From a virus (Duplodnaviria; Heunggongvirae; Uroviricota; Caudoviricetes): DNA of 14,132 bases. The notes beneath the pieces were generated by a model. It did no database searches, was not told where the DNA came from, and saw nothing but the letters and a program-made list of their open reading frames with translations. The position numbers and the translations under genes are program-made. This document shows positions 2,821-14,132 of the stretch, in pieces; position 1 is the stretch's first letter; each line of letters starts with the position of its first letter. The DNA lies in the IMG/VR virus record IMGVR_UViG_2534682295_000006; one strand, written 5' to 3'.

Positions 2821-3630
2821 TTATTCCTCTGAATTATCGATTACACTGTATTCCCCGGTTAATACAGAGGAATCTGCAGGATCGATTGTCAGTGGTTCCT
2901 TTTCATCCATTGATACTGCACGCTGGATCTCAATTGATACGGGCAGATATTTGAACAGGCGACGAATAGCCGTTTTCTTTGCCATTTCTTCCCAGTGAGT
3001 TACCCACGGCCCGTTATTACCAGCTTTACTCTGGCTGCGCACCAGCTCAATCTGTTTGCGCGTCATAACTTCAAACTGAGTACCTCCGTCTTTCAGTCTT
3101 GCGACAGCATAGACGTGGGTAACAGGGGCATCTTCGTTTTCTCCTGGGCGGTGTATTAACTTTTCATCAAGGCCAAATTCGAAATTAAACTCGTCACCTT
3201 CACGGACAACACGGGCTGACAAGCTGGCGATTTGACCTGAACGGCGAGCCAGATCAATCATGCCTCGATAGCCAATGATTAGCTGAACGTTTTTTTTACC
3301 GCTCTTTTCGTTTTTATTACCAAAAGGCAGTAAATATGCATGACCGAGGGCGCTACCGGGCTCAAGTCCGAGCTGTGAACACTGTACGATTGCACTGACA
3401 AAACTCATAGTGTCACAGTTTCCTAACGCCGGAACTTTACGAATTTCTGTGGTGGCGATACGGATCATACGTTCAGCCGTCATATGGCGTGGAAGAGCTG
3501 CTGCCAGTTGCTCTTTCATTGATGGCTGGTTAATAAAACTAATCACGTCGTTATTTTTAATTGCTGCTGGTGCACGGTTTCCCTGAGTTTTTTGCAGATC
3601 GGCTTTTGCGATTGGTGGTTGCTTAGTCAT
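2821..3630 (-). CDS. recT: RecT single-strand annealing protein, 269 aa from ATG at 3630; the track ORF starts 19 codons upstream
   Basis: Translation from [29 protein letters not shown] matches recalled K-12 RecT. Its start overlaps the recE 3' end by 8 nt. Confidence 0.93.
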
Positions 3631-6845: not shown

Positions 6846-7066
6846 CACCATGACTCCGCCTTTACAGGTAAACCATCACGACCGAGGAAGACTTTAATCA
6901 TGCGGTCAGTAATGCATGTTTTTGTGGTCAGGTTACGAATATATAGTTTTCGCTTTTTAATATTGTTTGCCGAGGCAATATATGTCCGGCCTTCATGAAG
7001 AACATAATCGCCAGGAGTCACACACTGACGTGGTATTTCATCAGTTCCGAAGTGATGTGCAATCAT
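6845..7066 (-). CDS. kilR: KilR cell-division inhibitor, 73 aa from ATG at 7066
   Basis: Translation [73 protein letters not shown] matches recalled KilR. GGAG Shine-Dalgarno upstream. Confidence 0.88.
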
Positions 7067-7246
7067 AATTATCTCCATTTTTACAAATGAACTTTGTTGA
7101 TGCGGTGCCTGGTGCCTCCAGGTGACTGCAACCAGTTAACAATTACAGTCGGCTTTCCCACCCAAACCAATAAGGACTAACATGACTTTTAACTGTGCCA
7201 CGTGCGCTTAGCCGCATTCACCGCATCACAAAATTCACTTTAAAAA

Positions 7247-7289
7247 GGGCGGACATCAGCCGAACTTCAAGAAAAAAACTGATGCCGCC
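7247..7289 (-). terminator. Candidate intrinsic terminator for leftward transcription in the kilR-sieB spacer
   Basis: Plus-strand arms GGCGGACATCAG (7248-7259) and CTGATGCCGCC (7279-7289) pair with one bulge around a 19-nt loop. On the minus strand the stem is followed by CUUUUUAAAGUGAAUUUU. Confidence 0.3.
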
Positions 7290-7507
7290 AGGACTACACA
7301 CAGCAATGTCGTTATTTACAACCGGAGGCGCACTCCCACCATTTAAATTTAACAGACAAGACCGACTCTTTATGGATATCGGAAATGCGCCTTCGTGTTG
7401 TGCCCGGTTTTATTTCACCACCTCCGGGCTTCGGTGGTCTCGGCTATACCCCTACAGCGAGAGCTTGTGTTAACATTTCAATACCCTTACAGTTGAGAGT
7501 TATTGAT

Positions 7508-7996
7508 ATGTTGGATGTATTTACTCCATTGTTGAAACTTTTTGCTAACGAGCCACTCGAAAGACTTATGTATACGATTATCATTTTTGGTCTCACTCTC
7601 TGGCTGATACCGAAAGAGTTTACTGTCGCATTCAATGCTTATACTGAAATACCTTGGCTCTTTCAGATTATCGTTTTTGCCTTTTCTTTCGTGGTCGCCA
7701 TTTCCTTCTCAAGATTGCGAGCACATATTCAAAAGCATTATTCATTACTACCAGAGCAACGAGTATTGCTTCGTTTATCTGAGAAAGAAATCGCTGTATT
7801 TAAAGATTTCCTTAAAACAGGAAATCTTATTATCACTTCTCCTTGCCGTAACCCGGTTATGAAAAAATTAGAACGGAAGGGCATCATTCAACATCAGAGT
7901 GATAGCGCAAACTGTTCTTATTATCTCGTCACCGAAAAATACTCCCATTTTATGAAGTTATTCTGGAACAGCAGGAGTAGACGTTTTAATCGTTAG
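7508..7996 (+). CDS. sieB: Superinfection exclusion protein SieB, 162 aa from ATG at 7508; the track ORF extends upstream to 7385
   Basis: Translation MLDVFTPLLKLFANEPLERLMYTIIIFGLTLWLIPKEF matches recalled SieB. Hydrophobic N-terminal segments. Opposite orientation to the surrounding operon. Confidence 0.88.
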   Translation: MLDVFTPLLKLFANEPLERLMYTIIIFGLTLWLIPKEFTVAFNAYTEIPWLFQIIVFAFSFVVAISFSRLRAHIQKHYSLLPEQRVLLRLSEKEIAVFKDFLKTGNLIITSPCRNPVMKKLERKGIIQHQSDSANCSYYLVTEKYSHFMKLFWNSRSRRFNR

Positions 7997-8148
7997 CTTA
8001 CTGTGTGCTTCTCCAACCATCGGCGCGCACCAGTTTCGGTTTTAAATGTTTTGCTTTTGGTATACGTCATGGCAGTGAACGTTCCATCCTGGTTGGGGAA
8101 CACGCCGCACACCAGGGATTCGTTGTTGCCGAGGTCGATTTTTTGCAT
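7993..8148 (-). CDS. ydaF: Rac prophage small protein YdaF, 51 aa
   Basis: Manual minus-strand translation: MQKIDLGNNESLVCGVFPNQDGTFTAMTYTKSKTFKTETGARRWLEKHTVS. Under 60 aa so absent from the track. Convergent with sieB, stop codons overlapping. Confidence 0.78.
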   Translation of the reverse strand: MQKIDLGNNESLVCGVFPNQDGTFTAMTYTKSKTFKTETGARRWLEKHTVS

Positions 8149-8158
8149 TTTGCGAATC

Positions 8159-8293
8159 TCACATCTTGTTGCTACGTATAGCGACTTCTGCCTGCCAGAG
8201 ATCCCAGTCGTTGCTGCGTAAAGCCTGCACAGCCTGGTTGTAAGTGATACCGCAACAATCCATCAAATACTGAACTACTTCGTAATGCACCAT
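8159..8293 (-). CDS. ydaG: Rac prophage small protein YdaG, 44 aa
   Basis: Manual minus-strand translation: MVHYEVVQYLMDCCGITYNQAVQALRSNDWDLWQAEVAIRSNKM, matching recalled YdaG. First gene downstream of the putative leftward promoter. Confidence 0.78.
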   Translation of the reverse strand: MVHYEVVQYLMDCCGITYNQAVQALRSNDWDLWQAEVAIRSNKM

Positions 8294-8454
8294 CTTATCT
8301 ATCCCCTTAACGCCGGGTGGCGGAACTAACTGCTGCACTGCAAAATTTGAATCCCGCCGTCATGTTCATACGCCTCGGGCTGGCTACTTAACCCCTGACC
8401 ACTGCCTGGTAACTCGAAGTATTGCCCGGCGTTCTGTGGGGCGGGGTGGGTTGG

Positions 8455-8520
8455 TAGGTATATAATGTACTTTGTGTTCATCATTGTAAAGTACTTTAAG
8501 TACATTTTATGTATAAAAAA
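8455..8520 (-). promoter_or_regulatory. Putative leftward early promoter/operator region upstream of ydaG
   Basis: AT-rich tract with palindrome AAGTACTT (8489-8496) and an inverted pair ATGTACT (8465-8471) / AGTACAT (8499-8505). Minus-strand TTTACA (8490-8485) with AT-rich -10 candidates 17-19 nt downstream. Confidence 0.4.
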
Positions 8521-8580
8521 ATGAGACGGGATAAAGTGAAGCACAAACCCGGAGGGGGACGCTACCGGATTTATGCTGGT

Positions 8581-9000
8581 TTAAGAGGCTTTTTGTTTTT
8601 TCTTTCGTGCTAACTCTTCGTAAATTGCATTGTACTTCTGTTTTTTCTCCTCAAGAGTTTTTAAAAGTTCATCTGTCTCACTGTCAGGGAGCTCGTCCAG
8701 AAGGTCAATGATGATTTTTTGTCTTGGATTTAACTCCTGATAGAAACGTATCTGTCCACTTTCTTCTGTATCCTCTCCCAAAAGATAGGTTGGTGTTGTT
8801 CCAATGAGTGTTGCTAATTCCCTTAATTTCTCTCGGCGAGGAATTGTTTCACCATTAAACCATTTGCTAACCGCTTTTGGTGTTAATTTCATTCGACGGG
8901 CAATTTCTGCCTGCCTTCCATGTTGTTCATAACCAGCGTTTTCACAGGCTAGCGCAAGCCTACTGGCGAACTCTTTACGCGCTTTATCTTCATGAACCAT
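8581..9000 (-). CDS. racR: Rac prophage repressor RacR, XRE-family HTH regulator, 139-aa ORF
   Basis: Track ORF. HTH-like segment GRQAEIARRMKLTPKAVSKWFNGETIPRREKLRELATLIG. Divergent from ydaS-ydaT. Confidence 0.88.
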   Translation of the reverse strand: MVHEDKARKEFASRLALACENAGYEQHGRQAEIARRMKLTPKAVSKWFNGETIPRREKLRELATLIGTTPTYLLGEDTEESGQIRFYQELNPRQKIIIDLLDELPDSETDELLKTLEEKKQKYNAIYEELARKKKQKAS

Positions 9001-9079
9001 AAGTTCAATGATATTCGCTCTTGAATGTACTGTCAGTTCTGTTATAGCATGTACTCAAAGTTCACATTGTGAGGGTGAT
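9001..9079. promoter_or_regulatory. Divergent racR / ydaS promoter-operator region
   Basis: Two direct copies of ATGTACT (9025-9031, 9049-9055) flank a plus-strand promoter candidate: -35 TTGAAT 9021-9026, -10 TATAGC 9043-9048. GAGGGTGAT Shine-Dalgarno precedes the ydaS ATG at 9080. Confidence 0.5.
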
Positions 9080-9334
9080 ATGAACCAGAAAACACTTGAA
9101 GATGTAATCAAAACTGTTCGCGTTTCTGTTGTGGCCGACGTTTGTGGTGTCAGCCAAAGAGCAATCTACAAATGGATGGATAACGGTAAATTGCCTCGCA
9201 CAGAATATACCGGCGAAACAAATTACGCTGAAAAAATCGCTCATGCATCAAACGGATTATTTTCTGCCGATGCAATTTTAACTATTGGCAGAAATAAAAC
9301 TACTACGAAAAAGCTGATGGGAGTTGATTCATGA
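9080..9334 (+). CDS. ydaS: YdaS, Cro-like HTH protein, 84 aa from ATG at 9080; the track ORF starts at 9008
   Basis: Strong Shine-Dalgarno GAGGG before ATG 9080. Using 9008 would leave only 7 bp between the divergent genes. Stop overlaps the ydaT start (ATGA). Confidence 0.82.
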   Translation: MNQKTLEDVIKTVRVSVVADVCGVSQRAIYKWMDNGKLPRTEYTGETNYAEKIAHASNGLFSADAILTIGRNKTTTKKLMGVDS

Positions 9335-9753
9335 AAATCAAGCATGAGCACATCGAATCAGTGTTGTTAGCCCTGGCAGCCGAAAAAGGGCAGGCGTGGG
9401 TCGCTAACGCAATTACTGAAGAATATCTGCGCCAGGGGGGCGGCGAATTGCCCCTGGTACCAGGCAAGGACTGGAACAATCAGCAGAATATCTATCATCG
9501 TTGGTTGAAAGGTGAAACGAATGCGCAAAGGGAAAAAATTCAGAAACTGATCCCTGCGGTTCTGGCAATTCTTCCTCGCGAGCTGCGTCACCGACTCTGC
9601 ATCTTCGATACCCTGGAACGCCGTGCATTACTGGCGGCACAGGATGCACTGAGTACGGCAATTGATGCGCATGATGATGCAGTCCAGGCCGTTTACCGTA
9701 AAGCACATTTCAGCGGCGGCGGTTCTCCTAGCGATTCTGTCGTAGTGCATTGA
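9331..9753 (+). CDS. ydaT: YdaT, Rac prophage toxic protein, 140 aa
   Basis: Track ORF of 140 aa starting MKIKHEHIESVLLALAAEKGQ, matching recalled YdaT length. Translationally coupled to ydaS. Confidence 0.88.
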   Translation: MKIKHEHIESVLLALAAEKGQAWVANAITEEYLRQGGGELPLVPGKDWNNQQNIYHRWLKGETNAQREKIQKLIPAVLAILPRELRHRLCIFDTLERRALLAAQDALSTAIDAHDDAVQAVYRKAHFSGGGSPSDSVVVH

Positions 9754-14003: not shown

Positions 14004-14132
14004 AAACGGTTTGCGGGAAAAGGATAGTTAAGTAGAATTGCTGCGGGTGCTTGAGGCTATCTGCCTCGGGCATGCCACCGTAAGGCAGACAGAGAAAAGC
14101 CCCAGTTAACATTACGCGTCCTGCAAGACGCC

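Follow-up and report, generated by a model that had tools for sequence, protein, structure and literature searches.

Phage lambda carries three 17-bp left operator sites, depends on N/nutL antitermination, encodes a repressor of the S24 type and has rexAB between cI and OL. Its OL/pL region resembles the locus described here in that one repressor gene is placed between two operator clusters, which overlap divergent early promoters, and in that the whole forms an exchangeable immunity region, but the two loci are without sequence homology. For phage HK022, cooperative binding of CI at OL and OR has been reported and looping between the two has been shown (PMC8053113), and HK022 pL is an active promoter in vitro (PMC9378689). 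In the cryptic prophage CP-933P of Escherichia coli O157:H7, the left promoter PL933P is repressed ~100-fold by PaaR2 and by the Cro-like protein YdaS, and PaaR2 forms octamers (PMC8630535). In E. coli K-12, depletion or silencing of RacR derepresses ydaG, ydaF, kilR, ydaE and racC, and according to one study recET as well (PMC11014345, a 2026 preprint). The RacR consensus, WTAGGC-N3-GCCTAW, was derived from footprints (PMC9638921); the RacR literature that was consulted footprints the racR-ydaS (right-hand) side only, and a left pL of K-12 Rac is unmentioned there.

The DNA analyzed here, referred to as the window (the whole stretch of 14,132 nucleotides), represents a Rac-type prophage located beside ttcA and contains intR, xisR, ralR/RalA, recT, recE, kilR, sieB, ydaF, ydaG, ydaT and ydaV. 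Across window positions 7900–9400, E. coli E2863 is 100% identical, ~3,800 E. coli genomes show any match, and the K-12 strains reach a coverage of 42% only. Several matches to RNA families were also observed elsewhere in the window. The RalA antitoxin sRNA is matched over its full length at 2394–2572 on the plus strand (225 bits), and a partial sok-like match, just sub-threshold, is located at the right end of the window (14045–14103, plus strand). Upstream of kilR, the minus strand carries a DicF-like match at 7247–7302 (sub-threshold, scoring 39 bits where the gathering score is 48) and a sub-threshold STnc100-like match at 7059–7245; these sub-threshold matches suggest that the left arm is organized like the Qin dicB operon, with a DUF1391 gene, DicF and a division inhibitor.

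We propose that positions 8462–8504 of the window are the OL/pL of an HK022-type immunity cassette that was recombined into a Rac-type prophage, and that one repressor would silence both arms; the probability that we attach to this reading is about 0.85. The cassette was delimited by a gap in homology to K-12. The window and K-12 Rac are 99.5% identical up to position 8456 and 92.5% identical from position 9325, and the segment in between (8457–9324), which comprises the predicted pL/oL, a hairpin, the repressor gene, the oR sites and cro, is unrelated. The homology to HK022 begins at 8461, next to the point at which the K-12 homology ends (8456): positions 8461–8519 show 80% identity to the HK022 pL/oL region (E 5e-10), and comparison with a phage collection revealed ~70% DNA identity to HK022, HK75 and O276 in the 5′ half of the repressor gene, the divergent promoter region and the cro-like gene. 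The window aligns nearly gap-free with the annotated pL -10, oL1, pL -35 and oL2 of HK022 and HK75, and its right side aligns with the oR3, oR2 and oR1 of the same phages. The cassette was found in ~645 complete E. coli genomes, and three deposited phage genomes carry it at 99.9% identity.

At the other end of the cassette, a perfect YdaT box (TTGATT-N6-AATCAA) was observed at 9324–9341, over the start codon of ydaT. This is the site described for YdaT of CP-933P and of K-12, and since the K-12 homology resumes at 9325, the box sits exactly at the right cassette junction.

The sequence-only reading of this DNA had drawn attention to an inverted pair in the spacer between the repressor gene and ydaG, and all of its elements were recovered: ATGTACT at 8465–8471, AAGTACTT at 8489–8496 and AGTACAT at 8499–8505. 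The geometry that it had assigned to them was not, as the pair is centered at 8485 and AAGTACTT, on which the pair was said to be centered, at 8492.5. Four exact copies of the heptamer ATGTACT are present in the 14,132 bases, where shuffles predict 1.0, and all four (8465, 8499, 9025 and 9049) lie in the intergenic regions that border the repressor gene on its two sides, in agreement with the earlier observation that the spacer and the divergent repressor region have a motif in common. The predicted operator has the form of a 15-bp dyad, TGWAC-N5-GTWCA, for which the window contains six matches with at most one mismatch; five of the six lie in the two regions flanking the repressor gene, which corresponds to a binomial P of ~7e-10 for at least five of six matches falling in 144 bp. 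ATGTACT is thus best described as a putative operator half-site plus one flanking base, and AAGTACTT as the left half of the putative oL2; the units predicted here are two adjacent 15-bp dyads rather than one large palindrome.

Predicted oL1 (TGTACTTTGTGTTCA, 8466–8480) matches the dyad with no mismatch and aligns with the annotated HK022 oL site at 2201–2215 and with HK75 oL1, whereas predicted oL2 (AGTACTTTAAGTACA, 8490–8504) has one mismatch and aligns with the HK022 oL site at 2225–2239 and with HK75 oL2; in the HK022 record (X16093), the oL sites are labeled as “potential” binding sites. The start-to-start spacing of oL1 and oL2 is exactly 24 bp, as in six other phages. On the right side, as in HK022, three sites are present. 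The oR3 equivalent (TGAACCATAAGTTCA, 8993–9007), which overlaps the ATG of the repressor gene (9000–8998), is identical to the HK022 oR site at 3000–3014, and the equivalents of oR2 (TGTACTGTCAGTTCT, 9026–9040) and oR1 (TGTACTCAAAGTTCA, 9050–9064) align with the HK022 oR sites at 3033–3047 and 3057–3071, respectively; they start 33 and 57 bp from the first right-hand site, as in other phages. HK022 additionally has OL3 and OFR, for which the window is without counterparts: at the corresponding positions no further site was found with at most one mismatch (the one match in the window outside the five sites lies elsewhere), and matches with two mismatches occur in the window at chance level, with none at a position equivalent to OL3 or OFR.

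The left sites are embedded in an AT-rich tract, 8457–8530, with a G+C content of 27% compared with 46% for the whole window. In a promoter scan of the spacer, the minus strand gave TTTACA-17-CATTAT as its sole promoter-like match, so that both the AT-richness and the minus-strand hexamers pointed out from the sequence alone hold good. The -35 hexamer TTTACA (8490–8485) is located at the position of the annotated -35 of HK022 pL, and the -10 hexamer CATTAT (8467–8462) aligns with the HK022 pL -10 (CATCAT). The match reaches 9 of the 12 consensus positions only, and its -10 is weak. From the position of the hexamers, leftward transcription would start at ~8455 (8453–8457), which falls at the left junction of the immunity cassette; position 8455 itself is polymorphic (A/G) and is a purine either way. 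Relative to this predicted start, oL1 would extend from approximately -11 to -25, overlapping the -10 hexamer and the promoter spacer, and oL2 from approximately -35 to -49, abutting the -35 hexamer. The window thus has in common with the pL-oL1-oL2 of HK022 and HK75 homologous DNA, the 15-bp TGWAC-N5-GTWCA, the 24-bp spacing and the register of the -35 (TTTACA) and -10.

The same layout, with the left pair 24 bp apart and the right trio at 0, +33 and +57, is found in HK022, HK75, Tritos, Klebsiella phage 2 LV-2017, Citrobacter phage Omnitron and Salmonella phage S9-5, the last of which is P22-like, and it spans phages of four genera. An alignment across genera has its invariant columns in the four half-sites, the -35 and the -10, and the N5 centers and the flanks drift; the -35, which reads TGTAAA on the plus strand, is invariant in seven phages of the four genera. 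A leftward early promoter just downstream of the repressor gene, sharing its operator motif with the divergent repressor/cro region, is supported by the homology to HK022 and HK75, by this layout, by the pattern of polymorphism and by the exchange of the cassette as a module, and the pL-like promoter suggested by the sequence-only reading gains its backing from the same observations.

The polymorphism was examined in 80 viral contigs or loci with a repressor at least 99% identical, which yielded 55 distinct versions of the left region; all 80 repressors being at least 99% identical, with no distant homologues among them, they were used for an analysis of polymorphism only. Within 8457–8520, common variants affect 0 of the 29 half-site or hexamer positions and 12 of the 35 other positions (Fisher P = 2.7e-4 for the 55 versions, a value that is only indicative, since the versions are related to each other and the test overstates their independence). 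The -10 CATTAT is free of common polymorphism. Eight of the 10 positions in the N5 centers vary, and in oL1 three of the five center positions vary and the half-sites show two single-sequence changes only.

This pattern bears on the reading that the locus is a decayed relic, in which a cryptic prophage retains a promoter and operators that are no longer functional. The weak -10 hexamer and the missing equivalents of OL3 and OFR are consistent with decay, and Rac-type prophages are often defective. However, it is precisely the half-sites and the hexamers that are spared by the polymorphism, an indication of ongoing selection, and the cassette is preserved at 99.9% identity in the deposited phage genomes and occurs in 645 E. 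coli genomes. We consider decay unlikely, with a small residual chance.

Downstream of the predicted start, the left operon would begin with a 155-nt 5′ leader (8302–8456, minus strand), which belongs to the left-arm module rather than to the immunity cassette. HK022 has putL where the leader begins at the predicted pL start, and its putL and nun are replaced in the window by the Rac-type leader and ydaG/ydaF. Of the ~3,800 E. coli genomes with a match to window 7900–9400, most carry the leader at 86–100% identity, and it adjoins three immunity modules: that of the window, the RacR module of K-12 and the PaaR2–toxin-antitoxin module of O157. Its 5′ end is very C-rich, and polymorphism in the first ~100 nt is much lower than at the non-contact positions of the adjacent operator region. 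A covariance model (R1) built from putL and putR recovered the put sites of HK022 and HK75 as well as the S9-5 putL, which was not used for training (63–92 bits), and detected no put-like RNA in the leaders of the window, K-12, O157 or Tritos, even at E values up to 10. A search of Rfam at E values up to 10 likewise returned nothing in 8250–8620, and neither covariation nor a conserved ORF was found in the leader among the variants. Two candidates in the leader were rejected: a long-range stem (8309–8317 with 8425–8433), which is broken by common variants without compensation and has a z of only -1.8, and a small ORF (MNMTAGFKF...), whose first ATG is replaced by AAG in the majority of variants and whose length is unconserved. 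It is conceivable, though in our view doubtful, that the leader acts in cis on the left operon as an RNA or DNA element not described so far, such as one for Rho loading or anti-termination, and that it accompanies Rac-, CP-933P- and Tritos-type prophages whatever their cassette.

The first gene of the left operon is ydaG (8159–8293, minus strand, ATG at 8293), which encodes 44 aa that match phrog_14709 from position 1 to 44 of 44, and the K-12 annotation carries the same 44-aa ydaG. The RefSeq CDS at this position is 59 aa long (8159–8338, minus strand) and uses a GTG start at 8338; its 5′ extension crosses the indel-rich 3′ part of the leader. The RefSeq start is probably an over-extension, the 44-aa version being better supported. 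The spacer of 287 bp that had been described upstream of ydaG is intact with the shorter gene, although the RefSeq CDS would reach into it as far as 8338.

On the other side of the operators, a hairpin (8577–8540 as read on the minus strand; fold z = -4.0) directly follows the stop codon of the repressor gene (8583–8581) and constitutes a difference from HK022. All 55 variants keep the 13 bp of its lower stem paired, and the common variation falls only on 8556, 8557 and 8559, which are in the apical loop. The U-tract is imperfect and a terminator scan made no call. The repressor transcript probably terminates at this hairpin, which would thereby insulate pL.

The proposed mechanism is as follows. 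A sigma-70 promoter on the minus strand would start transcription at ~8455 and read through the 155-nt leader into the left arm, beginning with ydaG and ydaF. In a lysogen, dimers of the 139-aa repressor on oL1 and oL2 would block RNA polymerase; the three sites of the same type that separate its gene from cro would be occupied by this repressor as well, so that it would silence both arms. The Cro-like protein probably uses the same sites, and the C-terminal tail of the repressor may provide cooperativity or looping between OL and OR, at a distance of ~520 bp. The logic attributed to the locus from its sequence, namely that one repressor governs both arms as lambda CI does, is supported in this form by homology, conservation and the module swap, whereas the RacR identity and the motif geometry that went with it are not retained.

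It could be asked whether the left sites, instead of controlling a leftward promoter, chiefly take part in looping and thereby tune the repressor/cro promoters, or else belong to a terminator or insulator. HK022 CI does loop between OL and OR, PaaR2 forms octamers and the conserved hairpin adjoins the sites. Against this, the sites bracket a conserved -35/-10 in the register of HK022 pL, a promoter that is active in vitro (PMC9378689), and an unrelated cassette in K-12 has the same geometry; looping and promoter occlusion can, moreover, coexist. A role confined to looping or insulation is very improbable in our view.

The repressor gene of the HK022-type cassette proposed here (8581–9000, minus strand) encodes 139 aa. 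Residues 1 to ~75 resemble the N-terminal domain of HK022 CI (46 of 99 residues identical over the N-terminal part, E 9e-32), and the recognition helix, TPKAVSKWFNGE, is nearly identical to that of HK022 CI, TPKAISKWFNGE; the repressors of the Klebsiella and Citrobacter phages have a recognition helix identical to that of the window repressor. The remainder of the protein differs. The C-terminal half is unrelated to that of HK022 CI, and Pfam detected in the window repressor only HTH families (HTH_3) and no Peptidase_S24, the domain that mediates cooperativity, which is present only in HK022 CI of the two (2.6e-19). The window protein matches a paaR2-type regulator of O157, encoded beside a RelB/ParE pair, over most of its length (28% identity, residues 30–138), and its residues 27–139 match positions 19–133 of the 133-position profile phrog_5736. 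Among solved structures, the N-terminal domain of P22 C2 alone was matched (E 0.006). Judged from these matches, the repressor is a domain chimera in which an HK022-CI-like HTH DNA-binding domain is joined to a short PaaR2-like C-terminal tail. As it lacks Peptidase_S24, RecA-mediated self-cleavage seems unlikely, and for the same reason what is known of occupancy and cooperativity at HK022 sites 24 bp apart is not simply transferable to this protein. The more modest reading is that an S24-less chimeric repressor would confer an HK022-type immunity that RecA cannot switch off.

The divergent gene (9080–9334, plus strand), which is labeled in RefSeq as an HTH transcriptional regulator, encodes 84 aa with 62% identity to HK022 Cro (E 1e-34), so that the homologous repressor DNA-binding domain and Cro are both held in common with HK022. 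A promoter-like sequence, CTGACA-17-TATCAT (10 of 12 consensus positions), was observed on the minus strand at 9008–9036. It ends 8 nt upstream of the repressor ATG at 9000, a position that implies a repressor mRNA that would be leaderless or nearly so. Leaderless or nearly leaderless mRNAs have been reported for lambda cI and for K-12 racR (PracR3).

CP-933P offers the nearest counterpart to the second half of this chimera. PL933P is likewise served by a repressor composed of an HTH and a short helical tail (the 28% identity over residues 30–138 noted above), an architecture that PaaR2-type short prophage repressors accommodate in about 130–140 aa; pL is followed by the conserved leader and a DUF1391 gene, and a YdaT partner is present. 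The operators of CP-933P differ, being 18-bp palindromes of the GTTTAGTAA type; a paaA2-parE2 toxin-antitoxin pair is inserted between the repressor and pL, and three left operators (OL1–3) have been reported, compared with two in the window.

In the sequence-only reading, the genes flanking the spacer had been taken for racR and ydaS, with K-12-type RacR binding the motif and controlling a Rac pL. The backbone is indeed of the Rac type (ttcA, intR, recET, kilR, sieB, ydaF and ydaG), and depletion of RacR in K-12 does derepress the left arm. Yet no K-12 homology exists across 8457–9324, so that the genes called racR and ydaS are different alleles in one slot, and the divergent gene is not the ydaS of K-12. 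The window repressor has only a 33-residue local match to K-12 RacR (12 of 33 identical, in the HTH region), and the RacR consensus WTAGGC-N3-GCCTAW has four matches in the K-12 locus and none in the window with at most one mismatch; conversely, the HK022-type operator pattern was not found in the K-12 immunity region. Control of this promoter by RacR is already refuted by the sequence and retains hardly any credibility; since the repressor is not RacR, RacR would be the wrong protein for a binding assay on 8440–8530.

The HK022-type cassette of the window and the K-12 racR-ydaS module nevertheless occupy the same chromosomal slot with the same junctions. In both, two 15-bp dyads are present on the left, one over the -10 and one abutting the -35, and the leftward promoter lies 6–8 nt from the junction, whereas the repressor and operator sequences are unrelated. 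Two of the four RacR-consensus matches in K-12 are located in the ydaG-racR spacer, where they flank a minus-strand TTGACA-17-TATAGT in the same register as in the window. Between the window and K-12, the exchange of the cassette goes along with an exchange of the motif on both sides together. In K-12 RV308, the sites ATAGGTAATGCCTAA (at 3567) and ATAGGCTATGCCTAA (at 3592) were observed within 3564–3606 of the locus (L002), in the ydaG-racR spacer, and the TTGACA-17-TATAGT of this spacer agrees with the promoter consensus at 11 of 12 positions. It is likely that the ydaG-racR spacer of K-12 Rac holds a pL that is controlled by RacR.

A chance origin of the motif cluster in AT-rich DNA has a negligible probability, and so has an origin from repeated codons in the ORF at 8326–8544 on the minus strand (72 aa, or 60 aa from the ATG), which spans the sites and in which the motif coincides with recurring TAC (tyrosine) codons that follow K or M. 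The clustering P is ~7e-10, and this ORF is without a Pfam match, crosses the cassette junction and would be shifted in frame by a 1-nt deletion at 8452 carried by 30 of the 55 variants.

Judged by its sequence, the locus is a usual representative of a familiar class of phage switches, namely a predicted HK022-type OL/pL set in a Rac-type backbone and served by an S24-less chimeric repressor, and the accepted picture of lambdoid switches is unchanged by it. Its consequences concern first the annotation of the ~645 complete E. coli genomes that carry the HK022-like immunity region of Rac-type prophages, to which findings on the RacR sites of K-12 should not be transferred. Cross-immunity is predicted between these prophages and phages of HK022 immunity. 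The immunity module is exchangeable, and its exact boundaries are the predicted pL start and, at the opposite end, the YdaT box. For K-12 Rac itself, the pL that is likely to be controlled by RacR would account for the reports that kilR and recET are derepressed on loss of RacR.
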